Positions 4,984-53,224 of a stretch of DNA of 53,224 bases are shown here, piece by piece (positions within the stretch are counted from its first letter, which is position 1; each line of letters opens with the position of its first letter). This DNA is from Verrucomicrobiia bacterium (GTDB taxonomy: Bacteria > Verrucomicrobiota > Verrucomicrobiia > Limisphaerales > UBA11358), in contig DATCDZ010000063.1 in NCBI GenBank assembly GCA_036510395.1, positions 1-53,224 on the forward strand, given 5' to 3'. Made by a program: the position numbers and the translations under genes. The notes under the pieces are model-generated. The model saw nothing but the letters and a program-made list of their open reading frames with translations. It was not told the origin of the DNA and did no database searches.

Positions 4984-5007
4984 ATTTTAACTTTCAAATC
5001 CAAAACA

Positions 5008-5080
5008 GTGATCATCCTCGTCCTCATCCTTCATCCTCAATTTTTTCTGTTTCGATCACGAGGATGAGGATGACGAGGAA
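5008..5080. repeat. Family F imperfect hairpin built of TCCTCR / YGAGGA units, in the sigma/anti-sigma spacer
   Basis: 'GATCATCCTCGTCCTCATCCTTCATCCTC' (5010-5038) faces 'GATCACGAGGATGAGGATGACGAGGAA' (5054-5080). The arms are complementary with one indel. Confidence 0.7.
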
Positions 5081-5095
5081 AACCCAGCCTGTGCC

Positions 5096-40367: not shown

Positions 40368-40431
40368 GCCGCAGATTTTCGCAGATGAAACACAGATAGA
40401 ACATCTGTGTAAATTTGTGTCCATCTGTGGC
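40368..40431. repeat. Family C complete hairpin between convergent genes
   Basis: 'GCCGCAGATTTTCGCAGATGAAACACAGATAGAAC' faces 'ATCTGTGTAAATTTGTGTCCATCTGTGGC'. The TAG stop of the 474-aa gene abuts its end. Confidence 0.8.
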
Positions 40432-41855
40432 TAGTTATTCCAGACCCAGTCACCTTTTGTGTAATCCATGCCGCCGTTTTTTGTATGCGGTGAAACTTCC
40501 TTGCCGCCGTCATCCGTTTCATTCCAGCCGATGGAGTAGAGCAAAAATTTCCCATCGTCCGTGCGACGATAATGCAACGGCTCACCGCCGATGATGTCGT
40601 GCGGAATCTTCTTGATGAACTGCGGCGCGAGCTCGTCGAGCGTTTCGGGATATTCGCCGTTTGCAAGACGGTAACGCTCCAACGCGCAGGCGATTTGCGC
40701 TTCGTTTGCCAGCGTTTGAGTGTGCGCGACTGTTTGCATTGTCTTGGTAAAGCTGGGAATGCCAATAGCCGCTAACATTCCAAAGAGCGAATGACGATCC
40801 AAGGAGGTCATGAGATCAGACATGGCACGTTCAATTTTTTGAGGCGACACGACTTCGTCCGTCGGCACGAAACTCTCAATGGGACTTTGTATCAATACGG
40901 CATAGACAACCATGTTCTGATAAACCCAGCCACGCGGCATAAGATCATATCCATATGATTTAAGATTTTCCATTTTTTGCCAAAATGTTTTGTGAGACGG
41001 CGTTCCAGTTCCAACCGAATTAATTTCCCTAAAATTCACTATTTCAGCCGTGTGACAGACGGAAGCTTGTTCTGCTTTAAGCGCTTCAGCTACGAACGGC
41101 ACCAAAGAAACGGATTTTAATTGCTCTTGGAGTGCGATGAGTTGCGGTTCCTGCCATGCGTGTTTCTGAAAACCATAGGCGATGGTGTTCACATAAAGTC
41201 CGGTGACGGCGACATTGACCATCGCTGCGACCAAAGTCATCGGCTTGCCGGTTGGCGCGCCTTCTAAAAATTTTCGCGAGTCATTGAGCAAAGTCACTTC
41301 GCTCAACGCTTTTTCCGGCTGGCCAAGCATCAAATAACACTTCGTGCGTTGAGCAAGGACTTGCGCCAACGCCCTTGTAGAAATGAAATTTGGAATCGGA
41401 ATCTCGAATGGCTTTGAATAGTCACCGTCCATCCGCGCATAAGGACGTTTCAATGCTTCGCGAATCAAATCGAAGTCCGGCTCAAACTGATCGCTCCAAG
41501 AAATAAAGTCCGCTGCCGCTGTCTTATTTGTGATCACTGCGACTAAAATCGCATTGGTCGCAAGTGTGTGAAGTTCATTTTTGTGCTGTGCGCCTCTTAT
41601 ACTTACAAACCAATCCTGCATCTTTGGCGCGGCAAAAAAATTCTGGTCAGCCGGCACGGGCGGCGGAATGTAGGCGTTCCAATCCAACACCGCGCCTTTG
41701 GCTTCGAGTTCGCGTTTGCAATTTTCCCACGCGCGTTTGCCGCGCCAGTCCTCCTCGGCGTAAAGAAGAGCAATCAATGTGGCGAGAACCGCCAGCGTGA
41801 TCAAAATCCGTCGCGGCCATCGCCAGCCTGATTTGGTTTTTGGTGTTTCGTTCAT
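40431..41855 (-). CDS. Membrane-anchored hypothetical protein downstream of the ECF sigma/anti-sigma-like pair
   Basis: 474 aa, N-terminal TM 'ILITLAVLATLIALLY', low-GC. I recognise no family. Confidence 0.65.
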   Translation of the reverse strand: MNETPKTKSGWRWPRRILITLAVLATLIALLYAEEDWRGKRAWENCKRELEAKGAVLDWNAYIPPPVPADQNFFAAPKMQDWFVSIRGAQHKNELHTLATNAILVAVITNKTAAADFISWSDQFEPDFDLIREALKRPYARMDGDYSKPFEIPIPNFISTRALAQVLAQRTKCYLMLGQPEKALSEVTLLNDSRKFLEGAPTGKPMTLVAAMVNVAVTGLYVNTIAYGFQKHAWQEPQLIALQEQLKSVSLVPFVAEALKAEQASVCHTAEIVNFREINSVGTGTPSHKTFWQKMENLKSYGYDLMPRGWVYQNMVVYAVLIQSPIESFVPTDEVVSPQKIERAMSDLMTSLDRHSLFGMLAAIGIPSFTKTMQTVAHTQTLANEAQIACALERYRLANGEYPETLDELAPQFIKKIPHDIIGGEPLHYRRTDDGKFLLYSIGWNETDDGGKEVSPHTKNGGMDYTKGDWVWNN

Positions 41856-41866
41856 AATTTCATTTT

Positions 41867-41930
41867 GTAGGAGTCGAGGTCACGAGACTCTAATTTATTT
41901 TAGTCACAGACTCCTTACGTCGTCTCCTAC
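41867..41930. repeat. Family B hairpin element, copy 1 (GTAGGAGTCGAGGTCACGAGACTC ... GACTCCTTACGTCGTCTCCTAC)
   Basis: An imperfect palindrome whose terminal CTCCTAC contains the TAG stop (41927-41929) of the upstream gene. Related copies lie at 43496, 44175 and 51123. Confidence 0.8.
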
Positions 41931-42358
41931 GTCATCAAAGTTTCAAAGCGCCGTTCGCTGCTTGGTCGCGGCGAAAATGATTTCTGCGGCTCGGCAATGC
42001 GCGGTTCATTGGACCCGATCAATTCGGCCAGCAATTTTTCCTGCTGACGGAACGCCAGGATCATTTCCGGCGATGGCGCCGGAGATTTCCGCGCCATCAT
42101 TTCAGCCGGGTCGCGCTGCGAGAAATTGACGGCGAAAATCAAAATCCAAACGGCGGCCAAACCCGTCCAAATCCGGCGGCACGGAAAAATCAATTCGCGC
42201 CAAAGCAAAAGTAGGACAGGCGTCGCGCCTGTCTCTGATTTTTCTTTTTCAAATGGAGACAGGCGCGACGCCTGTCCTACAATTTCACGGCGGATCGCAT
42301 CCAATTTCGGCTCCACGTTTTCGTGACGGGCAAATAAAATTTCTCTTGGCGTTTTCAT
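41927..42358 (-). CDS. Small single-pass membrane protein, putative anti-sigma partner; contains family A element copy 2
   Basis: Its start overlaps the sigma-factor stop (ATGA at 42355-42358). It has a TM helix 'IWTGLAAVWILIFAVNF'. The anti-sigma role is inferred from position only. Confidence 0.55.
   Translation of the reverse strand: MKTPREILFARHENVEPKLDAIRREIVGQASRLSPFEKEKSETGATPVLLLLWRELIFPCRRIWTGLAAVWILIFAVNFSQRDPAEMMARKSPAPSPEMILAFRQQEKLLAELIGSNEPRIAEPQKSFSPRPSSERRFETLMT
42211..42280. repeat. Family A palindromic element, copy 2 (perfect 25-bp stem, 20-nt loop), inside a reading frame
   Basis: GTAGGACAGGCGTCGCGCCTGTCTC (42211-42235) is the exact reverse complement of 42256-42280. Confidence 0.9.
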
Positions 42359-42906
42359 TTTTTCTCCTCCAGTAATTTTCGCAATGCGCGTTTGGCGTAG
42401 TGCAATCGTGACTTGACAGTGCCAATTTGCGTTTCGGTGATGTGCGCGATTTCTTCGATTGAAAAATCCTCAACGAAGTGCAGCAGCAAAACCGAGCGTT
42501 GCGGCATCGGCAGTTGATTCAGCAGGTTCATAAATTCGGCTTCCTGTTCGCGGCGGATGAGCAAGTCGTCCGGGCTGTTTTCAAATTCGTCCGGCGGTTC
42601 CGGAATTTCATCGAACAAAATCTCCTTGCCGCCGTGCTTTCGCCAAAGCTGGATGGTTTTCTGGTGCGCGATGCCGAAGAGCCAGCCGCCGAATTTTTCG
42701 TCGTCGCGCAGGCCGCCGATGTGCCGGACGGCGGCGATGAAGGTCTCCTGCACGAGGTCGAGGCTCGTCTGCTCGTTGTGGACCAGTTCAAAAACATAGA
42801 CGTAAAGCGGCAGTTGATAGCGGCGGAAAAGCGCGTCCCAGGCCTCCGGATTTCCTTCGCGGGCCTGTTGCACGGGCAATTGTTCGGCTATAGCCACTGC
42901 CAGCAT
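42355..42906 (-). CDS. ECF-type RNA polymerase sigma factor
   Basis: 'LYVYVFELVHNEQTSLDLVQETFIAAVRHI' (region 2) and 'LLLHFVEDFSIEEIAHITETQIGTVKSRLHYAKRAL' (region 4). Confidence 0.88.
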   Translation of the reverse strand: MLAVAIAEQLPVQQAREGNPEAWDALFRRYQLPLYVYVFELVHNEQTSLDLVQETFIAAVRHIGGLRDDEKFGGWLFGIAHQKTIQLWRKHGGKEILFDEIPEPPDEFENSPDDLLIRREQEAEFMNLLNQLPMPQRSVLLLHFVEDFSIEEIAHITETQIGTVKSRLHYAKRALRKLLEEKK

Positions 42907-43002
42907 TTATACCGAGTAGAATGCGCGAGGCGAGAAAAGGTTCAATTGATTTGAAAATTTCCGCAGTTGCCAAGTCCGTGTCAATCGCGCTAAATAAAAG
43001 GA

Positions 43003-43491
43003 ATGCCAACGGTCGCCGAACAACTGCGCGCGGCGCGCGAAGCGAAAAAACTCACGGTGCAGCAGGTCGCCGACGCGACGAAAATCCGCACCGACCACAT
43101 CCGCGCGCTCGAAGAGGGAAACTTCAACCTGTTTTCCGCGCCGATTTACATCCGCGGCTCGGTGAAAAATTACGCGACGATGCTCAAGCTGAACGTGCCG
43201 CAGCTCATGCTCGCGTTGGACGAGGAGCTGGGCCGCACGGAAAAATTCAGCGAGCCGCCGCCGCTCACCGAAGAGACCAAGTCGCCGTTCGACCATGTTT
43301 TTTTTCTGCTCTCGAAGGTGAATTTGCAGGTCGTGCTGATCGCCGGGGGAATTCTTGCGATCGCCGTGATTCTGGGCGTCGCGCATTGGGCGTTGCGGCG
43401 GCACAACAACGCCAATCCGCTCGGCAATCTGCCGCCCGCCGTTTATCAATCCGCCGATTCCGGCGACACGCTGCCGCTGCCGAAAAAATAA
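43003..43491 (+). CDS. RodZ-like helix-turn-helix membrane protein
   Basis: 'LRAAREAKKLTVQQVADATKIRTDHIRALEEGNFNLFSAPIYIRGSVKNYA' followed by a TM helix. Confidence 0.7.
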   Translation: MPTVAEQLRAAREAKKLTVQQVADATKIRTDHIRALEEGNFNLFSAPIYIRGSVKNYATMLKLNVPQLMLALDEELGRTEKFSEPPPLTEETKSPFDHVFFLLSKVNLQVVLIAGGILAIAVILGVAHWALRRHNNANPLGNLPPAVYQSADSGDTLPLPKK

Positions 43492-43495
43492 TTTC

Positions 43496-43556
43496 GCAAG
43501 AGTCGAGGTAACGAGATCAATTCCAAAAATCAGAGGCTTCTTGCGTCGTTTCCTGC
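43496..43556. repeat. Family B hairpin element, degenerate copy 2, between convergent genes
   Basis: 'GCAAGAGTCGAGGTAACGAGATC ... GAGGCTTCTTGCGTCGTTTCCTGC'. Confidence 0.6.
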
Positions 43557-43560
43557 ATTT

Positions 43561-44163
43561 TCAAACGTCGTTAAGGTAAATCTCGCGGTTGCGCCACAAA
43601 TAAATCATGCCGGACGCCACCGTCAGCGTGACCGTCACCCACAACATGATTTCCGCAAACAGCGGCAGCCAGCCGGCGAACAATTTTTGCAGCGGCGGAT
43701 TCCATTCGATGTTCGCGTCCACCAGCAGCAGCGCGATGATGGCGATGATTTGTGAAATCGTCTTGTGCTTGCCGAATCTTTCAGCCGCCAGCACGACGTT
43801 TTTCGACGCCGCCAGCAGACGCAATCCGGTGATGGCCAGTTCGCGCGCGACAATGACGATGACCATCCATGCGGCGACCTTGACCGGCGCGGCGGGGTGC
43901 AGATGCGTGCTCTCGACAAACGCGATGAATGCGGAGCAGGTCATTATTTTGTCGGCCAGCGGGTCCATCAGGATGCCGAAATTGGTGATGAGGCCGCGTG
44001 CCCGCGCGATGTGCCCGTCGAAAAAATCCGTCACGCCCGCCGCGCAGAAAAAAACCAGCGCCAGCGTGTTTCGAAACGGAACCGGCCAGGGACAGAACAG
44101 CGCGCAAAGAAAAAGAACCGTCAATGCGAAGCGCGAGGCCGTCAATTTATTCGGCAGGTTCAT
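43561..44163 (-). CDS. pgsA: CDP-diacylglycerol--glycerol-3-phosphate 3-phosphatidyltransferase
   Basis: CDP-alcohol phosphatidyltransferase motif 'DFFDGHIARARGLITNFGILMDPLADK'. Confidence 0.88.
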   Translation of the reverse strand: MNLPNKLTASRFALTVLFLCALFCPWPVPFRNTLALVFFCAAGVTDFFDGHIARARGLITNFGILMDPLADKIMTCSAFIAFVESTHLHPAAPVKVAAWMVIVIVARELAITGLRLLAASKNVVLAAERFGKHKTISQIIAIIALLLVDANIEWNPPLQKLFAGWLPLFAEIMLWVTVTLTVASGMIYLWRNREIYLNDV

Positions 44164-44174
44164 TTTTCTAAATT

Positions 44175-44243
44175 GTAGGAGACGACGTGAGGAGTCTCAC
44201 TATTCAAAATCAAAAGTTTAAGCCTCGTTACCTCGGCTGCTAC
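44175..44243. repeat. Family B hairpin element, copy 3 (opposite orientation), flanked by AAATT/AAATT
   Basis: 'GTAGGAGACGACGTGAGGAGTCTC ... AGCCTCGTTACCTCGGCTGCTAC'. A 5-bp direct repeat AAATT lies at 44170-44174 and 44244-44248. Confidence 0.8.
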
Positions 44244-44247
44244 AAAT

Positions 44248-45468
44248 TCACGCGCCAAACTTGTCGAACATCTTCGCATTGGCCTGCATCAGGCGCATGA
44301 GAAATTTCGATTCAAAAACGCCGAGCGAGCCGATGTTCGCGCCGGTTTCGGTGAAGCGCTCCAGCTTGTCGGAGCCGGAAAATTCCGAGTGCAGCAGCAC
44401 CGGCTGCGGATGCCACGAGTGGCCTTTGACGGCGACGGGCGTCGAATGGTCGCCGGTGATGACGAGCACGTCGGGCTTTTTCCGCAGAAAAACAGGCAGC
44501 GCGTCATCGAAGTATTCGATGGCCTTCATCTTGGCGACGAAATCGCCGTCTTCGCCCGCCTTGTCCGTGTATTTGTAGTGGATGAAAAAGAAATCGAAGT
44601 TATCGTATTCCTTGAGGTAAAGCTCGAACTGCTGCTGGATGGTCTGCGCTTCGATTTTTTTCATGCCGACGAGCTGTGCGAGTCCTTTATACATCGGATA
44701 AACGGCGAGGCACGCGGGCTTCAATTTGTAGCGCTCCTCGAACAGCGGGATGTGCGGCTGGTGCGCGATGCCGCGCATGAGAAAACCGTTCGCCGGATGC
44801 TCTTTTGAAATGACCGGCAGCGCGGCCTTGTAAAAATCCGCGACGAGCGCGGCCATTTTTTTCTGGCCGGAATTATTTTCGTCGCGCGGATGAACGGTTG
44901 GAATCGGAAATCCTTCGCGGTTCGGATCGGCGTCGGTCAGCGGGCCTTCGAGTCCCTTGCCGCGAAAGATGACGACGAAGCGGTGTTCCTTTCCGGCCTT
45001 GATTAAAATTTCCGTGTCGCCGATTTTTTTGATTTTGGCCGTGAGCAGCGCGACCAGTTTCTCGCAGACTTCGGTCGCGATTCTTCCGGCGCGGCGGTCG
45101 GTGACAATTCCCTTTTCGTCGAGCGTGGCGAAATTCGCGCGGGCGCAAACGTCGCCCGGTTTCAACTCGATGCCGAGGCCGAGCGCCTCGATGACGCCGC
45201 GGCCGACTTGAAATTCCAGCGGGTCGTAACCGAAAAGCCCCAGATGTCCCGGCCCGCTGCCGGGCGTGATGCCGGGCGCGACGGGAATCATGCGGCCTTG
45301 AGCGGAATCCTTCGCGAGCTTGTCGAGGTTTGGCGTCGAGGCGGCTTCGAGCGGCGTGAGATAATTCTGTTCCTTCGTCGCAATGTCGCCGAGGCCGTCA
45401 AGCACGATGAGTGCGAGCTTGGCTTTTGTTTTAAGTGTCAGTTCGGAATAAATTGTGTCCAAATTCAT
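44248..45468 (-). CDS. apgM: Cofactor-independent phosphoglycerate mutase, archaeal type
   Basis: 'LIVLDGLGD', 'TPNLDKLA', and 'ITGDHSTP' motifs. 406 aa. Confidence 0.85.
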   Translation of the reverse strand: MNLDTIYSELTLKTKAKLALIVLDGLGDIATKEQNYLTPLEAASTPNLDKLAKDSAQGRMIPVAPGITPGSGPGHLGLFGYDPLEFQVGRGVIEALGLGIELKPGDVCARANFATLDEKGIVTDRRAGRIATEVCEKLVALLTAKIKKIGDTEILIKAGKEHRFVVIFRGKGLEGPLTDADPNREGFPIPTVHPRDENNSGQKKMAALVADFYKAALPVISKEHPANGFLMRGIAHQPHIPLFEERYKLKPACLAVYPMYKGLAQLVGMKKIEAQTIQQQFELYLKEYDNFDFFFIHYKYTDKAGEDGDFVAKMKAIEYFDDALPVFLRKKPDVLVITGDHSTPVAVKGHSWHPQPVLLHSEFSGSDKLERFTETGANIGSLGVFESKFLMRLMQANAKMFDKFGA

Positions 45469-45529
45469 GGGTCTAATTTGCGAGGAAGCGGGTGCGAGCG
45501 CAATGCGATTCCGCGCGCGCCTTTAAGAA

Positions 45530-46021
45530 TTATTTCTTGTCGCGGCTGTGGACGAGCAGACCGGTCTGATAAACGAGATAATAGCCGACGGTCAGCGCCA
45601 AAATGAAAAGCGTCAGAGGGCTTTGGAACGGCACTCCGAGATTTGGCGGCGCCGACGCGTTGCCGGAGGAAATATATTTGTAGAGAAAGCGCCCGACGAA
45701 CAAAACTGACAGCGCGATGCCGATGTGCATATTGGGCGTGTAAAAATGGCCTTCGTCGGTCGTTTCAAATTTCGTGAGACGCAACCCGACCAAGCCCAGC
45801 AATCCGCCGAGCAGCAGCCCGCCGCCGAAACCGAGCAGCAAACTGATGTTTTGCAACGACGTGCTGACGATCAAAATGCTGACTGCGGACAAAATGACGA
45901 TGGAAGTGATCGCGCGGCGCGGGCGCAACGGCTGCCTGCCGATGTTGCGGCGGATGCGCCGGAAAATGCTCCAGGCAAAAATGCCGATGATCACAATGGT
46001 GCCGAAATGCTGCGATGACAT
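45530..46021 (-). CDS. Four-TM membrane protein, hypothetical (possibly DUF1453/CcdC-like)
   Basis: 163 aa with four hydrophobic helices and a basic loop 'FRRIRRNIGRQPLRPRR'. The family assignment is uncertain. Confidence 0.55.
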   Translation of the reverse strand: MSSQHFGTIVIIGIFAWSIFRRIRRNIGRQPLRPRRAITSIVILSAVSILIVSTSLQNISLLLGFGGGLLLGGLLGLVGLRLTKFETTDEGHFYTPNMHIGIALSVLFVGRFLYKYISSGNASAPPNLGVPFQSPLTLFILALTVGYYLVYQTGLLVHSRDKK

Positions 46022-46061
46022 TGGCGGAGGTTAAAATTTCAATCCGGCTTGTCGAGAGGAA

Positions 46062-46925
46062 TCACTTTCCCTCAACGCCTTTGAGATAGGCAAAAATGAG
46101 TTCCGGCAAATCGCGGCTGTATCCGCCTTCGAGCAGGCTGAAGAACGGGATTTTCAACGCGCACAATTCCCGGCCGAGCCAATGAAAATCTTCCGCGAGC
46201 AAAGCGCCGTCGGCTAGCGGGTCGCGCTCGTAGGCGTCGAATCCGGCGGACACGGCGACGAGGCCGGGCGAGAAATTCTTCAAGTCGTCCAGCGCGCGGG
46301 CGAGAGTGGCGCGCCAGGTTTCGCGCGGCGCGGACGGCGCGACGGGATAATTGAAACAATTTTCGCCGATATTTTTTCCGCCGGTGCCGGGATACGCTGG
46401 AAACTGATGGACGGAAAAAAAGGCGACGCCTTCGCGGTCGAGTAAAACGTCCTCCGTGCCATTGCCGTGGTGAACGTCGAAATCAAAAACGGCGACGCGT
46501 TTCGCGCCGGCCGCAAGGGCTTCGAGAACGGCGATGGCGATGTTGTTCAAATAGCAGAAGCCCATGGATTGTCCGCGCGTGGCGTGATGGCCGGGCGGAC
46601 GCATGAGACTGAAAACATTTTCGCCGCTGCGGGCGAACTGTAAGGCGTCGAGCGCGGCGGCGGCGGAAGCGCGGGCGCAATCGGAAATGTTTTCAAAAAA
46701 CGGCGTGTCGTTGTCGAAGTCGCGGGGGATTTTCAACCGCGCGAGCATTTCGGGCGAATGGGCGCGGAGGATTTGACCGTCGGAAATGGCTGCCGGAACA
46801 ATCCATTTAACCGGGATTTCATTTTGATTTTTCAACCGCGCGACCGTGGCGGTGATTCGCGCGGGACGCTCGGGATGGGCGTAGCGCGAATAGCCGGCAC
46901 ATTTTTCATCGGTGATGATTGTCAC
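46062..46925 (-). CDS. Histone deacetylase-family (arginase/HDAC fold) deacylase
   Basis: 'RPPGHHA', 'DFDVHHGNGT', 'GGY'. GTG start at 46925. Confidence 0.85.
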   Translation of the reverse strand: MTIITDEKCAGYSRYAHPERPARITATVARLKNQNEIPVKWIVPAAISDGQILRAHSPEMLARLKIPRDFDNDTPFFENISDCARASAAAALDALQFARSGENVFSLMRPPGHHATRGQSMGFCYLNNIAIAVLEALAAGAKRVAVFDFDVHHGNGTEDVLLDREGVAFFSVHQFPAYPGTGGKNIGENCFNYPVAPSAPRETWRATLARALDDLKNFSPGLVAVSAGFDAYERDPLADGALLAEDFHWLGRELCALKIPFFSLLEGGYSRDLPELIFAYLKGVEGK

Positions 46926-46933
46926 GCGAAAAA

Positions 46934-46970
46934 TTTAACCACGGATTAACACGGATGGACACGAATTTTG
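46934..46970. repeat. Family C-like unit array (CACGGAT variant) in a divergent intergenic region
   Basis: 'TTTAACCACGGATTAACACGGATGGACACGAATTTTG'. Confidence 0.6.
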
Positions 46971-47012
46971 TCGGCAACCGCGGCGATTCGTCTAAACTGT
47001 CCGGCGGAAAAC

Positions 47013-48041
47013 ATGAAACTAAAGTTTTTTTCAATCGCCGTTGCGCTTGGCGCGTTTGCCTTCAATGCCGGTGCGTGGGATTATGAGGGGCATCGCGCGA
47101 TCAACCAACTGGCGCTGGCGTCGCTGCCGGATGATTTCGGCATCCAGATGACGCCCGCGCTCAAGGGGCGCATCGCGTTTCTCGCGGGCGAGCCGGACCG
47201 CTGGCGGAATGTTTCGGACCTGCCGTTGAAGCATTTCAACGGGCCGGATCATTACTTTGACATGGAGGACTTGAAACTTTACGGACTGACGCCGGAAACG
47301 CTGCCGATCATGCGCTACGATTTTGTCGCCGACATCGTGAAGGCGCGCTTGGCGCATCCCGGGAGATTTCCGCCAATTGACCCGGACAGGGACGCCGACC
47401 ACACGCGCGAACTGGCCGGATTTCTGCCGTGGGCGATCACGGAGAATTACGAAAAATTGAAATCGGATTTCACCGTGTTGAAGACGCTCAGGCAATACGG
47501 CGGCACGCCCGAGGAAGTCGCCAACGCGCAGGCAGACATTGCTTATGTGATGGGCGTGCTGGGGCATTACGTCGGCGACGGTTCGCAGCCGCTGCACACG
47601 TCGAAGTATTTCAACGGCTGGGATCGGAACGACAACCCGAAGGGCTACACGACGCGGCAGACGTTTCACGCGTGGGTTGACGGCGGCTATTTCAAGAAGA
47701 CCGGCGGAATCAAGGTTGAAACGCTCGTCGGAAAAATAAATCCGGCGGCGCACATTCCGAACGCGGGCGACCCGGAGGCGTTTTTCCGTTATGTCGTCGC
47801 GTATCTCGTCGAGCAGGACAAATTCGTCGAGCCGCTTTATGAAATGGAAAAGAACGGCCAGCTTACCGGCGAAGACGGCAAGGGCATGGACGGCGTGCCG
47901 TTTCTCGACGGGCAGCTTGTGAAGGCCGGCCAGATGCTCGGCAACATCTGGCTGACCGCGTGGCTTGAGTCGTCTGATGAAGACACTTACCTCAAAAGAG
48001 ATCTGCAACACCGAAACGCAACGAATCCGCAGTCAAACTAG
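47013..48041 (+). CDS. Secreted S1/P1 nuclease-like or zinc phospholipase C-like metalloenzyme
   Basis: Signal peptide MKLKFFSIAVALGAFAFNAGA, then 'WDYEGHRAINQLA' and 'GHYVGDGSQPLHTS' metal-ligand-like motifs. The subfamily is uncertain. Confidence 0.55.
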   Translation: MKLKFFSIAVALGAFAFNAGAWDYEGHRAINQLALASLPDDFGIQMTPALKGRIAFLAGEPDRWRNVSDLPLKHFNGPDHYFDMEDLKLYGLTPETLPIMRYDFVADIVKARLAHPGRFPPIDPDRDADHTRELAGFLPWAITENYEKLKSDFTVLKTLRQYGGTPEEVANAQADIAYVMGVLGHYVGDGSQPLHTSKYFNGWDRNDNPKGYTTRQTFHAWVDGGYFKKTGGIKVETLVGKINPAAHIPNAGDPEAFFRYVVAYLVEQDKFVEPLYEMEKNGQLTGEDGKGMDGVPFLDGQLVKAGQMLGNIWLTAWLESSDEDTYLKRDLQHRNATNPQSN

Positions 48042-48215
48042 CGTTTGTTGTTCGCGGTCAAGTCCGTCTTTGGGCCGAAAGCGATTCTCCGCCCTTCCAA
48101 AACCGATGTTAAGCTAGCGGAAATTAAAATTATCCAAGCCGCGAAATGTTCTTGGAAAAATCCCGCGAACCGCCACCCTGTTGCCCAAGTCAACGAATCG
48201 AATTAACTTGACCAC

Positions 48216-48644
48216 ATGAAAAACGATATGGGAAAAGTCACGACGATGATCAAAGTCGCAAATTGGGATGACCTCGCTTTGCTGGCCGCAGGCGCGCGCA
48301 CGGAAAAACCGCGCGCCATGGAAACCAACGCGCTCGTGGACACGGGCGCGGTGAAATTCTATTTGAAATCTTCAATCATCCGCGAACTCGGACTCCGGCC
48401 TGTCGGTCAAATCCAGATGCGCACCATGTCCAACCGCTCGGAATCGCGGACGGTTTTTTCGCCCGTCGCGCTGGAGATTCAGGGGCGCACCGGCAGGTTT
48501 GACGTGGTGGAGATTCCCGATTCACTGCCGAACATCGTCGGCCAGATTCCGCTGGAAGATTTGGATTGGGTGGTGGATTGCCGCAATCAAAAGCTGATTC
48601 CCAATCCCGAACACAAAAACGGCGAGCTGGCGGATGAGTTTTAG
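48216..48644 (+). CDS. Stand-alone retropepsin-like (clan AA) aspartic protease
   Basis: 142 aa with 'ALVDTGAV' (the D-T-G catalytic triplet), a later 'IVGQIPLEDL' flap/dimer-like segment, and no TM or signal peptide. Confidence 0.65.
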   Translation: MKNDMGKVTTMIKVANWDDLALLAAGARTEKPRAMETNALVDTGAVKFYLKSSIIRELGLRPVGQIQMRTMSNRSESRTVFSPVALEIQGRTGRFDVVEIPDSLPNIVGQIPLEDLDWVVDCRNQKLIPNPEHKNGELADEF

Positions 48645-48718
48645 CGCTTGTAATTACGGCATAACCGCCCGATAAAATTGGTCAATTGGTCACGAAATCT
48701 TCGCAAACGAACGATTGG

Positions 48719-51103
48719 CTATTTCTTCAAACGGTAAAACATCGCGCCGCTTGAAATCGAATTCGTAACAACGTAGTTGTTTCCAACGATGACCGGGGAT
48801 GCTGCCGCCGACCAGACTGATGTTGCCGACAATGTGGTGGAATTTTGCAGGCTAAAGCCGGTCGCGTTCGTTAGCCAAAAAAGAACGATTTTATTTCCCG
48901 CAGACTGGAAACCAAGTATCGGCAAAGTGTAAATCACGGTGATGGTGCTTTGGTTCGCGTTGCCAGCGGTGTCGCGAGCCGCGATGGTGACAACATTCGT
49001 TCCGGTTTGCAGCGAGACGCCCGTGATGCTCCAAGCGGTGGTGCCAGTTGCAGTGCCGTTGTCGCCACGATTGTTGCTCCAAGTCACTTGGGCAATGCCG
49101 ACAATATCGCTGGCCGTGCCGCCAAAATTGATGTTGCCGGAATAATTGGTGTAAATCAGAAGCGTTGTCGGCGAAGTAATGTTTATCGTCGGCGGCATGG
49201 TGGCGTAAATCACCGCCAATGTGGCTTGGCCGGTATTTCCGGTGGCATCGTGCGCTGTAACAGTGATTGTGTTCGTTCCGCTTTGCAGGGCAACGCCGGT
49301 AACGCTCCAAGCGGTTGTGCCGGTTGCGGTGCCGCTGCCGCCACGATTATTGCTCCAAGTCACCTGCGTCACGCCAACATTGTCGCCCGCCGTGCCACCG
49401 AGATTGATGCTGCTGACGTTGGTGGAATAAAGCGCGCCAGTCGTCGGTGAAGTGATGCTGATGGTTGGCGGCGTCGTGTCCGGCGGATTGTAGATGACTG
49501 TGAGGGCGGCTTGCGCAGTGTTGCTCACCGTGTCGTAAGCCGTGACTGAAATCACGTTGGTGCCGCTCTGCAAACCGATGCCATTGGCGATCCACGCCGT
49601 TGTTCCGCTGGCGGTGCCGCTGCCGCCGCGATTGTTGCTCCAGGTTATCCGCGCAACTCCAAGAGTGTCGCTGGCAGTGCCGCCCAGATTTATGCTGCCG
49701 GAAGCGGTTGTGTAATTTGAAGCCGTTGTCGGCGAGGTAATCGCAATCGCCGTGTTCAATGCAGTCACAAGCCCAACCTGATAGCCGCCGGATGAAGGTT
49801 GAGTTAAAACGTAACCGCCTGAAATTGAATTTGAAAATGCCATGTATGCCGTGCTGGCGCCCGCGACGGAGTCGGTCAATTGGATGCCGCCGCAACTCGC
49901 GTTTAGTTTTGAATAAGAATAGGTGCCGATGCCGTTCAATCCTCCGCCACTGATTGATGTTATGGTGTAACCGTTCCCTGAAACAGCCGTTGAAAAAGTG
50001 AAGCTGCCATTGGCAGCATACGGGTAGACACCGCTCGTCACAGTGATATAAAAACCTTGCCCGGCGATTGAATTGGGAACTGGATCCGTGAGCGTGGCAA
50101 AATCGCCGGTTTGGGTGTATTGCCCAGATGTTCCGGTGCTTAAAGCGTAGCTTCCCAAGAGCGGAGTGAAATAAAAGAAACTGCCTTTGATTGAACCGTT
50201 GATGCTGTCGGAAAAATTGATTGTTCCAGCAGCGCCATTTCTCGAATAAGAATAGCTGCCGCTGCCGCTGGTGACATCTCCAAGGCCGATCACCTGATAA
50301 CTGCTTCCCGAATTGGCTGGCAGAAAAAGAAAATAGCCGCTGCTGGCAAGAGGCGGCGTGCCGGAGGATACGACGGCAAGAAATGTGTTTCCGGCAATAG
50401 AAGAAGGTGCCTGCGCTGTTAAGAGTGCTATGTTGCCAAACTGGTAGTTACCTGAGGAAGGCTGTGTTGCAAGATAGTCGCCGGACACCGAATTTGAAAA
50501 AACCAAATACGCGGTTTCGCTGCCTCCAACCGAGTCGTTTAATTGGATGATGCCACAGGTTGCGTTTGGTTCGGAATAAGAATAGGTTCCGTAGCTGTTT
50601 GTTCCTCCGGCGCTGATTGCTGTGGTCGTGTATGTGCTTCCTGAAGTGGCAACTGTAAATACAGCGCCGTCGTCCTGCACACTGATATAAAATTTTTGTC
50701 CGACAATCGAAGTCGGAACCGGGTTCGTGAACATGATGAAGTCGCCATTTTGGTAGCTGCCTAAAGCAGGCACTGTAACAGAATTCGTTCCGGACAAAGA
50801 ATTGGCAAATACAAATTTTAGATTTCCAGAAATGCCTGGAAGGGTGAAAGCTGCGGTGCCGGTTGCGCCGGAAGCCGTATAAGAAGAATATGTGCCGGGT
50901 TCGGTTGAACCATCTTCGTTAAAGATTTGCAAGCCGTTGCCCGAATTTGCCGGCACGAAAAGATAAAAGCCGAATCCATCGCCGCCTGTGATTTCCACGC
51001 CAAAAGTTTTTCCGGCGATAGAGGCGGATGCTTGCGCATTCGCCGAATCAAGCGACAGCACAACCATCAAAGCCACCGCAATCGCGAGAATTTTTCGTTT
51101 CAT
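48719..51103 (-). CDS. Secreted multi-repeat surface protein (two large N-terminal repeats, three Ig-like repeats, C-terminal '...FYRLKK' module)
   Basis: ATG at 51103 gives the signal peptide MKRKILAIAVALMVVLSLDSANA. The track N-extension (to 51166) is translated family B repeat. Confidence 0.8.
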   Translation of the reverse strand: MKRKILAIAVALMVVLSLDSANAQASASIAGKTFGVEITGGDGFGFYLFVPANSGNGLQIFNEDGSTEPGTYSSYTASGATGTAAFTLPGISGNLKFVFANSLSGTNSVTVPALGSYQNGDFIMFTNPVPTSIVGQKFYISVQDDGAVFTVATSGSTYTTTAISAGGTNSYGTYSYSEPNATCGIIQLNDSVGGSETAYLVFSNSVSGDYLATQPSSGNYQFGNIALLTAQAPSSIAGNTFLAVVSSGTPPLASSGYFLFLPANSGSSYQVIGLGDVTSGSGSYSYSRNGAAGTINFSDSINGSIKGSFFYFTPLLGSYALSTGTSGQYTQTGDFATLTDPVPNSIAGQGFYITVTSGVYPYAANGSFTFSTAVSGNGYTITSISGGGLNGIGTYSYSKLNASCGGIQLTDSVAGASTAYMAFSNSISGGYVLTQPSSGGYQVGLVTALNTAIAITSPTTASNYTTASGSINLGGTASDTLGVARITWSNNRGGSGTASGTTAWIANGIGLQSGTNVISVTAYDTVSNTAQAALTVIYNPPDTTPPTISITSPTTGALYSTNVSSINLGGTAGDNVGVTQVTWSNNRGGSGTATGTTAWSVTGVALQSGTNTITVTAHDATGNTGQATLAVIYATMPPTINITSPTTLLIYTNYSGNINFGGTASDIVGIAQVTWSNNRGDNGTATGTTAWSITGVSLQTGTNVVTIAARDTAGNANQSTITVIYTLPILGFQSAGNKIVLFWLTNATGFSLQNSTTLSATSVWSAAASPVIVGNNYVVTNSISSGAMFYRLKK
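48920..49741 (-). repeat. Three tandem coding repeats (95, 92 and 87 codons) of an Ig-like unit
   Basis: 'ITSPTT..Y....S.IN.GGTA.D.VG...VTWSNNRG..GTA.GTTAW...G..LQ.GTN...V.A.D..GN..Q..L.VIY' occurs three times. Confidence 0.85.
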
Positions 51104-51122
51104 TTTGTTCCTTCGTTTTTCC

Positions 51123-51200
51123 GTAGGAGACGACGTCAGGAGTCTCTGAATCATTTCCGGTTTCATATTTTAATCAGAGTCTCGTCACCTCGACTCCTAC
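51123..51200. repeat. Family B hairpin element, copy 4
   Basis: 'GTAGGAGACGACGTCAGGAGTCTC ... GAGTCTCGTCACCTCGACTCCTAC'. The terminal CTCCTAC contains the hicA TAG stop (51197-51199). Confidence 0.85.
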
Positions 51201-51415
51201 TTTACGGCGTCCAAAAAATCCTGTAATTCCACGCCGCCGTCGCGCAGCGCGCCTTTGAGAGTGTAGCGGTCCACTTCATCGTGAAAGGGAAAAACAATCC
51301 GTCGTCCGTCGGGATGCTGAATTTTTACATGGCTGCCCTTGCGATGAATCTCGACAAACCCAAGCCGTTGCAAGACCGCCAAAACCCGCCGTCCTGACAA
51401 CAACGGCAGCTTCAT
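51197..51415 (-). CDS. hicA: HicA-family mRNA interferase toxin
   Basis: 'LSGRRVLAVLQRLGFVEIHRKGSHVKIQHPDGRRIVFPFH'. Its start overlaps the hicB stop (ATGA). Confidence 0.85.
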   Translation of the reverse strand: MKLPLLSGRRVLAVLQRLGFVEIHRKGSHVKIQHPDGRRIVFPFHDEVDRYTLKGALRDGGVELQDFLDAVK

Positions 51416-51615
51416 ACCATCATTTCAACGACTTCGCGTTCATCGTTCAGGCTCAATTCTTCCGGTGCCGGCTCCAGATATAAATCAATGGCTTCGCGGA
51501 TGTTTTTCAACGCCGCATCGCGCGTCTTGCCTTGCGACCAGCAACTTTTCAGCGACGGACAATGAGCCACGAAACAGCCGTCCTCGCCATGTTCCAGAAC
51601 GATTTTCAAAGTCAT
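51412..51615 (-). CDS. hicB: HicB-family antitoxin (UPF0150 domain only)
   Basis: 'EDGCFVAHCPSLKSCWSQGKTRDAALKNIREAIDLYLE'. Confidence 0.8.
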   Translation of the reverse strand: MTLKIVLEHGEDGCFVAHCPSLKSCWSQGKTRDAALKNIREAIDLYLEPAPEELSLNDEREVVEMMV

Positions 51616-51624
51616 GTCATCAAA

Positions 51625-51661
51625 GTGCTGTTTTCCTTGACAAATTCAAGCCAAAAAGCAC
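51625..51661. promoter_or_regulatory. Inverted repeat GTGCTGTTTT...AAAAAGCAC around a TTGACA hexamer; possible operator in the hicB/XRE divergent region
   Basis: GTGCT.TTTT (51625-51634) faces AAAAAGCAC (51653-51661). TTGACA lies at 51637-51642. I found no convincing -10 hexamer. Confidence 0.25.
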
Positions 51662-51735
51662 GGTTTGTTTATCCAGCCCTTCATGCAAGTATTCTGGCAT
51701 CCGGCGTCAAGCGTCTTTTTCGGTATTCCTTTCCT

Positions 51736-51990
51736 GTGCCGGTTGCAAAACTAAACGATGCTATCAGTTCTCAAGTCGCGTGTCTGCTAAAAGTGGAGCG
51801 TGAAAAGCGCGGCCTTTCCCTGAACGTGCTGGCCCAAAAAGCCGGTTTGTCGCGTCAAACCGTCAGTTACGTTGAACAGGAAGTGCAAAATCCAACGCTG
51901 GACACATTGCTCCGAATCACATCAGTTTTGGAAATTGACCTCGGAAAAATTATTTGTAAAGCACGGAAAGCTGCGGTCATACAGAAATAA
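51736..51990 (+). CDS. XRE-family helix-turn-helix regulator
   Basis: 'EREKRGLSLNVLAQKAGLSRQTVSYVEQEVQNPTLDTLLRITSVLEIDL'. The start is uncertain: GTG at 51736 is the first start clear of hicB, and the track ORF opens at 51532. Confidence 0.7.
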   Translation: MPVAKLNDAISSQVACLLKVEREKRGLSLNVLAQKAGLSRQTVSYVEQEVQNPTLDTLLRITSVLEIDLGKIICKARKAAVIQK

Positions 51991-52174
51991 GCATCTGGTT
52001 TTTTTCGGCAAATTCCTCGGCGATCATGTCGAACACGTCGTGAAGTTCGTGCTGCGCCTCTTCCGGCGTGCGCCCGATGGCGTGGCAGCCTTCTTCAATC
52101 GCGGGAACGTAGGCGACGTAACTGCCGTTGTCATCGCGCCGGCAAATGACTTGATAATCGAACAGCGTCTTCAC
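51977..52174 (-). CDS. Second HicB-like (UPF0150) protein with no adjacent HicA
   Basis: 'DDNGSYVAYVPAIEEGCHAIGRTPEEAQHELHDVFDMIAEEF'. GTG start at 52174. It overlaps the XRE gene tail-to-tail by 14 nt. Confidence 0.7.
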   Translation of the reverse strand: MKTLFDYQVICRRDDNGSYVAYVPAIEEGCHAIGRTPEEAQHELHDVFDMIAEEFAEKNQMLISV

Positions 52175-52213
52175 TGGATGAAATTAACATTTCCCAAACG
52201 CGCGGTCAAAGCG

Positions 52214-52299
52214 TTTTACTCTGCCGTCGCCAACTCCATGTCGCGCGTGTAATACAAAATCCGGCCGCAGCTTGAGCAGGTCACAATCTCCTTCTGGGC
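52214..52299. repeat. 86-bp direct repeat, copy 1: an orphan duplicate of the last 27 codons plus stop of the COG1579 gene
   Basis: It aligns without gaps to 52831-52916 at an offset of 617 nt, with 6 mismatches. On the minus strand it translates to AQKEIVTCSSCGRILYYTRDMELATAE*. Confidence 0.9.
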
Positions 52300-52527
52300 T
52301 CAACGCTTGCTGGCGTGCAACACGGTCAGGCCTACCACTTCGTCGTTTTCGTAGCGCACGACAACATCGTCGTCGGTCATCTCGCTGTCGGTGGCGTGGC
52401 TGGGCTTTTTGAAATTGATATACAGCACATCCGCCCCGGCGTCGTAGGATGACCAGAGATAATTGTGCGGCGACCGCCTCACGGCGGGCATCAGCTTCAA
52501 AAATTCGTTGATCTCGGCTACGGCCAT
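52300..52527 (-). CDS. DUF2283-like small protein (putative antitoxin)
   Basis: 'SYDAGADVLYINFKKP...DDDVVVRYENDEVVGLTVLHAS' matches the DUF2283 pattern (YD.e.D.LYI ... GieIl.as). Confidence 0.65.
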   Translation of the reverse strand: MAVAEINEFLKLMPAVRRSPHNYLWSSYDAGADVLYINFKKPSHATDSEMTDDDVVVRYENDEVVGLTVLHASKR

Positions 52528-52820
52528 AATTGTTTTTTCCGGTTGAGCGAGGCTTCGCGGCGCGTCAGAAAAGCGGTGATGACAAAGCCGTCGTCAGCGT
52601 CCTCACGATACACGGCCACGAGGATTTTGCCATCTGTTTGTTTTTTGAGCGCAAGCAGTTCGTCCGCGCCACCGGCCAGAATCCGTTCCGGTTTGGAAAC
52701 GGTTTCCAGCACATCCCATTTCAAACCGGCAAGCTCGGCGTGTTCCTCGGTGATGTGCGACCATCGTTCATCCGTGAGGCGAATGGCAGCGCCGTTTCTG
52801 GATGTCACGGTTTCGGTCAT
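52518..52820 (-). CDS. Small conserved protein, probable toxin partner of the DUF2283 protein (family not firmly recognised)
   Basis: 100 aa: 'IRLTDERWSHITEEHAEL...VLETVSKPERI...ILVAVYRE..DDGFVITAFLTRR'. It overlaps the downstream gene by 10 nt. Confidence 0.55.
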   Translation of the reverse strand: MTETVTSRNGAAIRLTDERWSHITEEHAELAGLKWDVLETVSKPERILAGGADELLALKKQTDGKILVAVYREDADDGFVITAFLTRREASLNRKKQLWP

Positions 52821-52830
52821 GGACTTTCAA

Positions 52831-52916
52831 TTTCACTCCGCCGTCGCCAGTTCCATGTCGCGCGTGTAATACAAAATCCGGCCGCAGCTTGAGCAGGTCA
52901 CGATCTCCTTCTGCGC
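52831..52916. repeat. 86-bp direct repeat, copy 2: the functional 3' end of the COG1579 gene
   Basis: See 52214-52299. Confidence 0.9.
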
Positions 52917-53224
52917 CTGGCACGACACGATCAACTGCGCCTGCAATTTCATGTGGCAGCCGCCGCAGACTCCGTGGTCTATGCCCACCACCGCGTTGTC
53001 GCCCTTGCTTTTGAGAAGCCGGTCGTAACGGTTGCGCGCGGATTCATCCACGCCGGACGCCAGTTCCGCGCGGCCCGACTGCAACGCGGCGAGTTCCTTC
53101 TTGAAATTTTCCTCGCGCTGGCCGAGTTCGGCGATCAGGCTGTCGGCAAGTTTCTTCGCCTCGTTCGCCTCGGCGGTCGCAAGGACAACATCTTTTTGCG
53201 CCGCCTCGGCCTGTTCCATCAAAA
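52833..53224 (-). CDS. COG1579-type coiled-coil / C4 zinc-ribbon protein; the 5' end probably lies beyond the window edge
   Basis: A coiled-coil region is followed by 'GVCGGCHMKL...VTCSSCGRILY' (two CxxC pairs). The frame stays open to the window edge. Confidence 0.75.
   Translation of the reverse strand, partial: LMEQAEAAQKDVVLATAEANEAKKLADSLIAELGQREENFKKELAALQSGRAELASGVDESARNRYDRLLKSKGDNAVVGIDHGVCGGCHMKLQAQLIVSCQAQKEIVTCSSCGRILYYTRDMELATAE

Follow-up and report, generated by a model that had tools for sequence, protein, structure and literature searches.

A putative toxin-antitoxin cassette between two copies of its host gene's 3′ end in a Verrucomicrobiia genome

Phage 21 and e14 (both at icd of E. 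coli) and streptococcal ICEs (at rpsI, rplL, guaA or similar genes) integrate into the 3′ ends of protein genes, for which they bring a replacement end. The insert then lies between direct repeats made of the 3′ end; the gene remains whole, and an orphan copy with mainly silent differences is left behind. The locus described here shares these features; however, while those elements are kilobases long, encode their own site-specific integrase and use one att site, the insert here measures 0.5 kb, is recombinase-free, and recurs at many unrelated genes between repeats of about 59–803 nt. Direct repeats of tens to hundreds of bp are also made by IS1634 and IS1549. Their target duplications are long and variable as in the present case, but both elements carry terminal inverted repeats and a DDE transposase, and the cassette has neither. 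Toxin-antitoxin (TA) pairs are common integron cargo, and integron cassettes resemble our cassette, a compact reading-frame unit for which no promoter-like match was found. While in integron cassettes an attC site follows the stop codon, in most contexts studied here the stop codon is directly followed by a duplicate of the upstream gene's 3′ end, and no integron integrase was found in the regions checked (window 40431–53224 and locus L001). Campbell-type insertion-duplication by homologous recombination, familiar from laboratory mutagenesis, has further features in common with our loci: a single segment of the empty site is doubled around the insert, the copies look like donor and recipient alleles, an inter-strain breakpoint lies inside the repeat, and no enzyme of the element is needed.

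Compact TA islets are thought to spread via homologous recombination at flanking core genes, while their integration was said to “remain unclear” (PMC13617665, 2026). In that model the arms are two different core genes, whereas here a single gene's end supplies both arms, and the cassette is therefore independent of its variable downstream neighbour. We found in the literature neither a described equivalent nor a description of same-gene-tail arms as a natural, recurrent trait of a cassette family. For one family, these loci offer a testable answer to how TA pairs come to sit alone between core genes.

The window is a stretch of 53,224 nt from a Verrucomicrobiia bacterium (GenBank assembly GCA_036510395.1, contig DATCDZ010000063.1); loci in other sequences are given L numbers. 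The features are listed in the table.

Features of the cassette locus in the window
Feature	Position	Strand	Remarks
Host gene, 3′ part	52833..53224	-	CT398/CdsZ-like coiled-coil and C4 zinc-ribbon protein; 5′ part past window end
Gene-proximal repeat copy	52831..52916	-	Last 27 codons, TGA stop (52833-52835) and 2 nt; completes the working gene
Leader, 12 nt, AATTGAAAGTCC	52821..52832	-	From host stop codon to cassette ATG
Putative toxin gene (cassette gene 1)	52518..52820	-	100 aa; predicted BrnT/RelE-like (BECR-fold) RNase shape
DUF2283 gene (cassette gene 2)	52300..52527	-	75 aa; putative antitoxin; Pfam DUF2283, E = 6e-13
Orphan repeat copy	52214..52299	-	27 codons, TAA (52216-52218) and 2 nt; former 3′ end of the zinc-ribbon gene, displaced by the insertion
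Native downstream flank, 31 nt, AACGCTTTGACCGCGCGTTTGGGAAATGTTA	52185..52215	-	Still joined to the orphan copy

A repeat search of the window returned an ungapped direct repeat of 86 nt with 93% identity, both copies of which encode AQKEIVTCSSCGRILYYTRDMELATAE followed by a stop codon. They differ at six positions, five of which are synonymous codon changes (GCC/GCG, ATT/ATC, GAG/GAA, TTG/CTG and GCA/GCG), and the sixth exchanges TAA for TGA. Search and translation thus agree with what a preliminary description of this DNA had stated about the repeat. Its account of the 531 nt between the copies (52300–52830), said to contain a DUF2283-like gene and a partner of 100 aa, was also correct, with the addition of 10 of the 12 leader nucleotides; from start codon to stop codon the cassette measures 521 nt. 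The TGA of the DUF2283 gene (52300–52302) directly adjoins the orphan copy, which is intact in the window and lies in the same reading frame. No third copy of the repeat and no degenerate att site were found elsewhere in the window, and the search of positions 1–48700 returned internal gene repeats only, with no further repeat-bracketed cassette.

As short metagenome contigs can collapse or duplicate repeats, we considered whether the gene pair is simply resident, and the repeat due to chance, to tandem duplication in place or to faulty assembly. Both copies with the same six differences are present in the independent assemblies L002 (JGI), L001 (ENA) and L003; the window is 100% identical to L002 and 99.6% identical to L001 over 6,080 nt. 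Locus L043 contains a diverged version of the repeat–cassette–repeat structure, which brings the number of independent assemblies with this structure to four. An artefact, one of the outcomes that would have overturned the preliminary description by its own account, is thereby ruled out. Random placement of the six differences, with the counts of transitions and transversions matched, left the protein unchanged in 0.2% of 20,000 trials (P = 0.002), a codon-aware test of the kind that had been proposed. Together with the empty sites and the cassettes at other genes described below, these results leave an explanation without mobility practically negligible.

The host gene product matches Zn_ribbon_9 (Pfam, E = 1.3e-11), CT398_CC weakly and the NCBIfam model CdsZ below cut-off. 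The full-length gene (242 aa) is found in L001 at 4736–5464, and the protein has more than 7,500 homologues, the nearest of them from Verrucomicrobiae. The two cassette genes are co-oriented and overlap by 10 nt, and at all complete cassette loci the DUF2283 gene follows the toxin gene. Type II modules such as BrnTA and HigBA, with toxins of the RelE/BrnT/HigB fold, likewise consist of a pair of small genes that overlap and share their orientation, the toxin gene preceding the antitoxin gene. An AlphaFold model of the putative toxin (pLDDT 73) had the BrnT RNase toxin as its top match in the PDB (probability 0.99, E = 0.03, TM 0.50–0.62), followed by HigB and RelE, whereas its Pfam matches, PBECR2 (E = 0.004) and DUF4258 (E = 0.02), were both below cut-off. 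Some toxin homologues have a precomputed PF18810 assignment, and NCBI lists one under the name PBECR2 nuclease. The pair may be called a putative toxin-antitoxin module, toxin first, as judged from sequence and predicted fold; the antitoxin role of DUF2283 is equally putative. Scans for Rfam families, promoters and terminators at the locus returned nothing over background and no promoter-like match for the cassette. The cassette genes are clustered with HicAB-type modules; in L043, the neighbouring HicB-like and HicA genes are not flanked by repeats.

Toxin homologues numbered 1,102 at E ≤ 1e-5, and about 10 contexts were examined. Related cassettes were found in Verrucomicrobia at the ends of at least six unrelated housekeeping genes, the zinc-ribbon gene included, and in three other contexts; the hosts are peat and soil Verrucomicrobiota. 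Each time the bracketing repeat consisted of local sequence. Besides the zinc-ribbon gene, the tails concerned were those of a carB-like CPSase_L gene (repeat of 122–126 nt, 85–89% identity), ThiC (281 nt, 90%), purC (59 nt, 80%), LpxD (58 nt, 81%; about 105 nt counting a decayed stretch) and a gene of the sulfite/nitrite-reductase family (NIR_SIR, L172; 24 nt, then about 40 nt past a gap). The repeat measured 92 nt in the intergenic context L165/L166, 258 nt in L187/L188 and 803 nt in L186, and the cassette of L164 has no adjacent repeat of its own. The same two genes at at least six different gene ends support the view that the cassette is mobile. Between sites the cassettes share 70–91% nucleotide identity; many insertion events are therefore old, and non-coding ends of the element could have eroded past recognition.

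The order of events became apparent from the empty sites, which the preliminary description had suggested looking for in relatives. In the related genome L154, the zinc-ribbon gene is intact and has the tail type of the orphan copy (ATT, GAG TTG, TAA), and the 31 nt right after its stop codon match the flank of the orphan copy in the window with 2 mismatches, where similarity stops. Locus L193, which has neither cassette nor orphan copy, aligns with L001 at 99.5% identity along 5,467 nt that end 3 nt past the stop codon, with no homology beyond; its tail differs from the gene-proximal copy at two positions (ATT and TAA). Both empty sites have a single tail. Among the other 160 zinc-ribbon loci, only L043 contained a genuine second copy of the tail, as the second matches in L005 and L144 were not real. 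Because tail and flank of L154 match the orphan copy, and the homology of L193 ends at the stop codon, the orphan copy represents the old gene end and, we infer, the gene-proximal copy arrived with the cassette. This incoming copy keeps the gene whole. The repeat is thus well supported as the two edges of an insertion, in which a TA cassette entered at the 3′ end of the zinc-ribbon gene, left the old end as an orphan and brought a second allele of the end along. In L043 the orphan copy has decayed: three of four substitutions change an amino acid, and the stretch upstream of the substitutions is 9 nt longer than in the window. Orphan copies are therefore not always refreshed by recombination. 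Of the alternatives offered in the preliminary description, mobilisation in trans or a relic, a simple relic is disfavoured by the intact orphan copy in the window, even though that of L043 is decaying.

Across sites, the repeat copies differ by 3–20%, mainly at silent sites, and the stop codon is kept in all orphan copies. The bias toward silent sites was significant in repeat pairs at five targets, with P < 5e-5 for the carB-like tails of L167 and L170 and for ThiC, and P = 0.0017 for purC. The proposal that the two copies diverged while each was part of a functional gene therefore holds for the window and extends to four other targets; the substitution patterns support two alleles that each evolved inside a working gene. 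The loci L167 and L170 are identical across 3901–4562, a stretch that spans a 44-nt element (element X), an additional (third) copy of the tail (B), the cassette and the orphan copy up to its nucleotide 40. Past 4562, mismatches climb through the remaining orphan copy, and there is zero homology after its stop codon. Judging from this alignment, the difference between the two loci is a homologous-recombination breakpoint inside the orphan copy.

The preliminary description had interpreted the locus as an integrating element with its own replacement of the target gene's end, flanked by attL and attR. The insertion that brings a copy of the gene end was borne out by L154 and L193; the att sites were not. 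For such sites, an integrase supplied in trans would insert an integrase-less, CIME-like element whose attP carries the replacement 3′ end. This would account for an architecture like that of elements integrating in a gene 3′ end and restoring the gene, including the silent differences between the copies, and for the precision with which the cassette ends on its right side; the cassette of L191 is also followed, at a distance of about 2.2 kb downstream, by a tyrosine-recombinase gene. On the other hand, the cassette occupies at least six unrelated targets and three other contexts whose repeats are unrelated, and pairwise comparison and inspection revealed no att core common to all of them. The length of the repeats varies between about 59 and 803 nt. 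No integrase or recombinase was found between the repeats, as already stated in the preliminary description, and its suggested search for a cognate recombinase gave none in window 40431–53224, which takes in roughly 12.8 kb on the downstream side of the zinc-ribbon gene, or in the 4.7 kb that precede the gene in L001. In eight cassette copies, the best score for terminal inverted repeats was no better than that of shuffled sequence. The unrelated targets, the lack of terminal inverted repeats and the lack of a nearby integrase argue against an attL/attR element, and the junction of L167 and L170 at a variable point within the orphan copy is what homologous exchange predicts. We consider site-specific integration in trans quite unlikely. 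Orphan gene ends with purely silent differences hence need not be att sites of an integrase. Searches of IMG/VR (with a single protein and a profile) and of a phage collection gave no matches to the cassette, and a plasmid collection gave only distant matches from Leptospira (33% identity).

Alternatively, the insertion itself might duplicate a long and variable target, either by a transposase acting in trans (similar to that of IS1634 or IS1549) or by replication template switching, which would copy the cassette in and resume upstream, and the silent differences would follow later through allelic recombination of either copy. Repeats of local sequence at each new target would then come for free. 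The cassette ends are precise, and fossils of former targets sit on the left side only in the subfamily without extra post-stop sequence, as though the unit were constant at its 3′ end and variable at its 5′ end. Yet the cassettes lack terminal inverted repeats and a transposase nearby, the repeats reach 258–803 nt, and their range of about 59–803 nt is at odds with the characteristic duplication length of a DDE transposon or MITE. An upstream copy that ends exactly at stop codons is unexpected for a DNA transposase. The almost purely silent divergence of 3–20% and the kept orphan stops require a second process anyway. Duplicative insertion appears rather unlikely, if less so than an integrase in trans.

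Our preferred reading, to which we assign a probability of roughly 60%, is an insertion with a duplicated tail that then spread by homologous recombination with the tail as homology arm. Once enclosed by a conserved tail on either side, the cassette would share homology at its left and right edges with any genome that has the gene, and DNA consisting of gene tail, cassette and tail could enter a naive strain through ordinary homologous recombination. This might take place by a double crossover, on the left in the gene and on the right between the orphan tail and the tail of the recipient, or by a Campbell-type single crossover of a circle of tail and cassette; neither a circular form nor a product of excision was seen. 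Invasion would not depend on the downstream sequence, which is hypervariable here; because two conserved copies of the gene end enclose it, the cassette could therefore be carried into any strain that has the gene, even with hypervariable neighbours. Each transfer would leave one donor-derived tail and one tail that is partly recipient-derived, which would account for copies that diverge only in the manner of two functional alleles. A recombinase of its own would be unnecessary, and toxin-antitoxin addiction might then retain the cassette. Homologous recombination covers the spread among genomes that share a target, but not the origin of the duplicated state at a new gene.

The first insertion joins the cassette, sometimes together with a piece of a former target's tail, directly after the stop codon of the new target at four of the six gene sites (zinc-ribbon, carB-like, ThiC and purC), where the target's stop codon is also the limit of the upstream repeat copy. 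At the other end, the downstream copy begins 0–19 nt past the stop codon of the DUF2283 gene in seven contexts, with cassettes that lack extra post-stop sequence. In a subfamily with a TAA stop, it begins 108 nt (L187/L188) or 387 nt (L186) past this codon. Homology between sites comprises the two reading frames only, from positions −2 to +1 at the start codon to −7 to +9 at the stop codon, and extends further upstream solely where leaders are related; in the window, the TGA of the DUF2283 gene ends the mobile unit. The great precision of the right end, and a junction placed immediately behind the target stop, suggest a specific step, which could involve a trans-acting enzyme or a defined intermediate, either linear or circular.

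Beyond spread by homologous recombination, the family might represent an undescribed type of mobility, in which a TA unit without recombinase, inverted repeats or att core is inserted exactly after the host stop codon, uses the duplicated tail as an arm, and hops between gene ends while keeping fossils of former targets in front. We put this forward as a possibility only, with clearly less confidence than our preferred reading. A new and specific step of insertion would then underlie the junctions at stop codons, and this step might be tied to the mRNA cleavage that the fold of the toxin model makes conceivable. If the first insertion is indeed stop-codon-specific, it would be a new kind of mobility.

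Such junctions could also arise by way of RNA, if mRNAs were cleaved at their stop codons, perhaps by the RelE/BrnT-like toxin itself, and the pieces were ligated, copied into DNA by reverse transcription and brought into the genome by recombination. In favour of this, a stop codon marks each of the two junctions (target stop, leader and cassette, DUF2283 stop, target tail), the 5′ end of the unit varies while its 3′ end is fixed, and the toxin model is similar to mRNA endonucleases that depend on the ribosome. However, no reverse transcriptase was found near any examined cassette locus, the nucleotides at the junctions are, by our reading, not those expected if codons were cleaved after their second base, and the orphan copy is in the DUF2283 frame in the window, L043 and L167 but out of frame in L172 and L192. 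To our knowledge, RNA-mediated insertion of this type has no precedent, and we regard it as very improbable. Given the same lack of a constant frame, and the decay of the orphan copy in L043, translation of this copy by read-through of the DUF2283 stop is not supported.

Two further candidates were considered. An integron-like GTTRRRY core is present at the right junction in the window and L164, but absent from L043, L165, L167, L172 and L183, and was rejected. A shared target motif seemed possible because the zinc-ribbon and carB-like tails both end in ...TGGCGACGGCG...AATTGAAA, yet the ELATAE-type ending is native to many cassette-free zinc-ribbon genes.

Two leaders bear on hopping between sites. 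At the NIR_SIR site (L172), the leader AAATTGAAAGCCC corresponds to that of the window; this 13-nt match was reached in 1 of 300 shuffles, and homology between the window and L172 begins at −13. The 178-nt leader at the LpxD site (L183) holds a decayed carB-like tail, with a local alignment score of 37 that none of 300 shuffles reached. The source of this fossil may be either the carB-like tail in its gene copy or an orphan copy preceded by a cassette end, as in a former tandem array; the two alignments are both plausible. In practice, tail duplications of this kind disrupt assembly from short reads and may be called as small, spurious genes during annotation. Relative to the cassette, a 19-nt core of element X is found on the left in L167–171 but on the right in L186–190, an indirect hint of a circular or linear intermediate.

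The window locus seems to belong to a family of toxin-antitoxin cassettes, apparently not described before, that carry no recombinase and lie between duplicated gene ends; it is related to insertion-duplication and to the known elements that integrate at the 3' ends of genes. A repeat search of the window bore out the preliminary description of a direct repeat around a two-gene cassette: both copies translate on the minus strand to AQKEIVTCSSCGRILYYTRDMELATAE followed by a stop codon, and their six differences comprise five synonymous codon changes and an exchange of TAA and TGA. When as many transitions and as many transversions as observed were placed randomly, only 0.2% of simulations left the peptide unaltered. 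As described, the 531-nt interval holds a gene for a 100-aa protein and its DUF2283 partner, together with most of a 12-nt leader. The gene-proximal copy is the true end of a 242-aa coiled-coil and zinc-ribbon gene of the CT398/CdsZ type. An assembly artefact had been considered; as the same two-copy structure with the same six differences recurs in independent assemblies (L002, 100% identity; L001, 99.6%; L003), the repeat is not of that kind. The 100-aa protein models with modest confidence as an RNase toxin of BrnT/RelE/HigB-like fold, so that the label 'TA-like' was fair, and we infer that the pair acts as toxin and antitoxin.

Features of the window and repeats around the toxin and DUF2283 pair at other sites, with comparison of the two tail copies
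Feature or site	Locus	Position in window	Repeat length	Identity	Codons	Nucleotide differences	Amino-acid changes	P
Zinc-ribbon tail repeat, orphan and gene-proximal copies	window	52214-52299; 52831-52916	86 nt, ungapped	93%				
100-aa gene, between repeat copies	window	52518-52820						
75-aa DUF2283 gene, 10-nt overlap with 100-aa gene	window	52300-52527						
Addiction-type gene cluster	window	51197-52174						
Imperfect palindrome	window	51123-51201						
815-aa protein gene	window	48719-51166						
After 516-aa carB-like CPSase_L gene	L167-171		122-126 nt	85-89%				
carB-like tail pair	L167				39	15	2	< 5e-5
carB-like tail pair	L170				39	18	2	< 5e-5
After sulfite/nitrite-reductase-family (NIR_SIR) gene	L172-177		24 nt, gap, then about 40 nt	96% for the 24 nt				
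After lpxD	L183-185		58 nt (about 105 nt with decayed stretch)	81%				
After thiC	L192		281 nt	90%	93	31	10	< 5e-5
After purC	L191		59 nt	80%	19	13	3	0.0017
Other context, intergenic repeat	L165/166		92 nt	88%				
Other context	L187/188		258 nt	97%				
Other context	L186		803 nt	95%				

A total of 1,102 homologues of the 100-aa protein reach E <= 1e-5, many of them 70-93% identical. Besides the window's own two cassette proteins, the contigs of nine homologues were looked up; the comparison covers about ten cassette contexts, all from metagenome assemblies. At all five other target genes and in three other contexts, direct repeats of local sequence bracket the cassette. In L169 (1-3430), compared with L167, the carB-like gene is cut down to its last ~470 nt before the cassette, a DNA methylase and an HNH gene standing in place of the remainder; gene tail, cassette and orphan therefore also occur as a block away from an intact target. 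One cassette, in L164, has no repeat of its own and is nested in another repeat pair, within which a DUF433 gene pair lies as well. In this locus a repeat of ~55 nt (3290-3354 and 4729-4792), which corresponds to the end and downstream flank of a neighbouring NHL-repeat gene, brackets the DUF433 gene and a 77-aa gene on the opposite strand, one copy abutting the stop codon of the latter; duplicated gene ends may therefore harbour other toxin-antitoxin families likewise. One of the nine homologues, a 113-aa toxin variant (L178-L182), was set aside, as no DUF2283 gene adjoins it; in L180 and L182 a DruA-like gene and an IS66-family transposase come after it, and several contigs of this set stop near the variant gene.

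The carB-like, ThiC and purC pairs likewise show an excess of silent differences. All ten amino-acid changes of the ThiC pair fall within the last third of the tail, its orphan is still a 98-aa open frame, and the stop codon is retained in all orphans. The excess thus supports the earlier proposal that both copies evolved inside working genes, and the pattern characterises the cassette family, not just the window locus.

In the seven contexts whose cassette carries no extra sequence after the DUF2283 stop, the downstream repeat copy begins 0-19 nt past that stop; in a TAA-stop subfamily it begins 108 nt (L187/188) or 387 nt (L186) past it. For the zinc-ribbon, carB-like, ThiC and purC sites, the end of the upstream copy coincides with the stop codon of the target. 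Cassettes of different sites are homologous only within the two reading frames, from start codon to stop codon, and no inverted repeats occur at the cassette ends. There is no integrase near the window locus; the cassette had no match in IMG/VR or a phage collection, and a plasmid collection gave distant matches only. The initial reading of the copies as attL and attR fails on three traits that define such elements: a recombinase nearby, a common core and a fixed repeat length are all lacking.

Orphan tails are often arranged as if translatable (window 52216-52302; L167 4525-4644; L192 3521-3817), the orphan of L172 being an exception. The ATG of a 98-aa ThiC fragment overlaps the DUF2283 stop in L192 (TGATGA), a 39-aa orphan frame begins 4 nt past that stop in L167, and the orphans of the window, L043 and L167 share the reading frame of the DUF2283 TGA. 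The ends of two unrelated target tails are alike at the DNA level (L167 4625-4660 and window 52821-52860): the carB-like orphan end TGGCGACGGCGAAGAATTGAAA resembles the end of the zinc-ribbon copy and leader TGGCGACGGCGGAGTGAAATTGAAA, with a score of 30 that 0 of 300 shuffles reached. This likeness could be due to chance, target preference or a carried fragment.

Among 160 loci with relatives of the zinc-ribbon gene, fetched from Verrucomicrobiota genomes and peat and soil metagenomes only, a genuine second tail copy with cassette was present in L001, L002 and L043 alone. An uninterrupted gene end was found in L154, where the intact zinc-ribbon gene has a tail (ATT, GAG TTG, TAA) that matches the window orphan, and the 31 nt after it match the orphan's flank; similarity to the flank ends beyond those 31 nt. 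L193, belonging to the same sample set, is 99.5% identical to L001 over 5,467 nt, ending 3 nt past the zinc-ribbon stop codon; it has neither cassette nor orphan, and nothing in common with L001 further on. It follows that the orphan represents the old end of the gene with its native flank still attached, and that the cassette, together with its leader and the gene-proximal copy, is the newcomer. Among close strains, DNA downstream of the zinc-ribbon gene is hypervariable. The cassette was also found beside another allele: L043, whose zinc-ribbon protein is 83% identical, carries the same cassette (89.5% nucleotide identity) at the same position. Its orphan is decayed: three of four substitutions are non-synonymous, and the sequence preceding these substitutions exceeds that of the window by 9 nt.

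Within the zinc-ribbon gene (nt 481-640), L193 (5481-5640) and L001 (5216-5375) show 25 differences in 160 nt, and are 99.5% identical outside this segment. Homologues have two types of the segment, DRLLKSKGDNAVVGID and ERLLKGKGDNVVVGIN; it looks like a recombination tract ending near the cassette.

Several cassettes bear traces of movement. L167 and L170 have a near-identical upstream backbone, and no difference separates them over the cassette and the initial 40 nt of the orphan; across the remaining orphan mismatches build up, and no homology exists past its stop codon. This pattern places a homologous exchange point inside the orphan tail, through which the cassette is linked to two different downstream contexts. 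At the LpxD site, a decayed carB-like tail is preserved in the 178-nt leader, and therefore the cassette moved from a carB-like site to lpxD, carrying the tail of its former target. The L167 group has a third tail copy of 55 nt immediately before the cassette, and a 13-nt leader is common to the window and the NIR_SIR site. The 19-nt core of a 44-nt element 'X' was found nowhere in the 1.6 Mb of fetched DNA except beside the cassette, on its left in L167-171 and on its right in L186-190; a circular permutation would account for this placement, and so would capture of the native flank of the carB-like gene.

In the best-supported model, the duplicated tail serves as a homology arm that travels with the cassette. 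Flanked on either side by a conserved gene end, the cassette could enter any genome having that gene; a double crossover would suffice, as would a Campbell-type single crossover of a circle of tail plus cassette, and variable downstream DNA would be no obstacle. Each transfer would leave one donor-derived and one partly recipient-derived tail, which would account for the silent-site differences. The model extends a published idea in which toxin-antitoxin islets spread by recombining at the core genes that flank them (PMC13617665). How a cassette first inserts at a new gene, with junctions at the target's stop and the DUF2283 stop, falls outside it. Candidate routes for this step, of lower probability, are duplicative insertion (by template switching or by a transposase supplied in trans), integration by an integrase supplied in trans, and an RNA-based route.

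Directly past the window orphan lies a cluster of small addiction-type genes. It comprises a HicB-like gene of 65 aa (73 aa in L043, there followed by a HicA gene), a HicB/HicA pair and, encoded on the opposite strand, an XRE-type HTH gene. The DNA that follows the zinc-ribbon gene looks like a hotspot where toxin-antitoxin modules accrete. Between hicA and the gene of an 815-aa secreted protein is an imperfect palindrome with arms of ~27 nt (GTAGGAGACGACGTCAGGAGTCTCTGA ... TCAGAGTCTCGTCACCTCGACTCCTAC). A related motif, GTAGCAGCCGACGTGAG..., is part of the repeat bracketing the L165 cassette, and the palindrome may represent a dispersed, REP-like element in these genomes. The 815-aa protein has bacterial Ig-like domains, and its gene contains several internal direct repeats of 200-210 nt with 67-74% identity.
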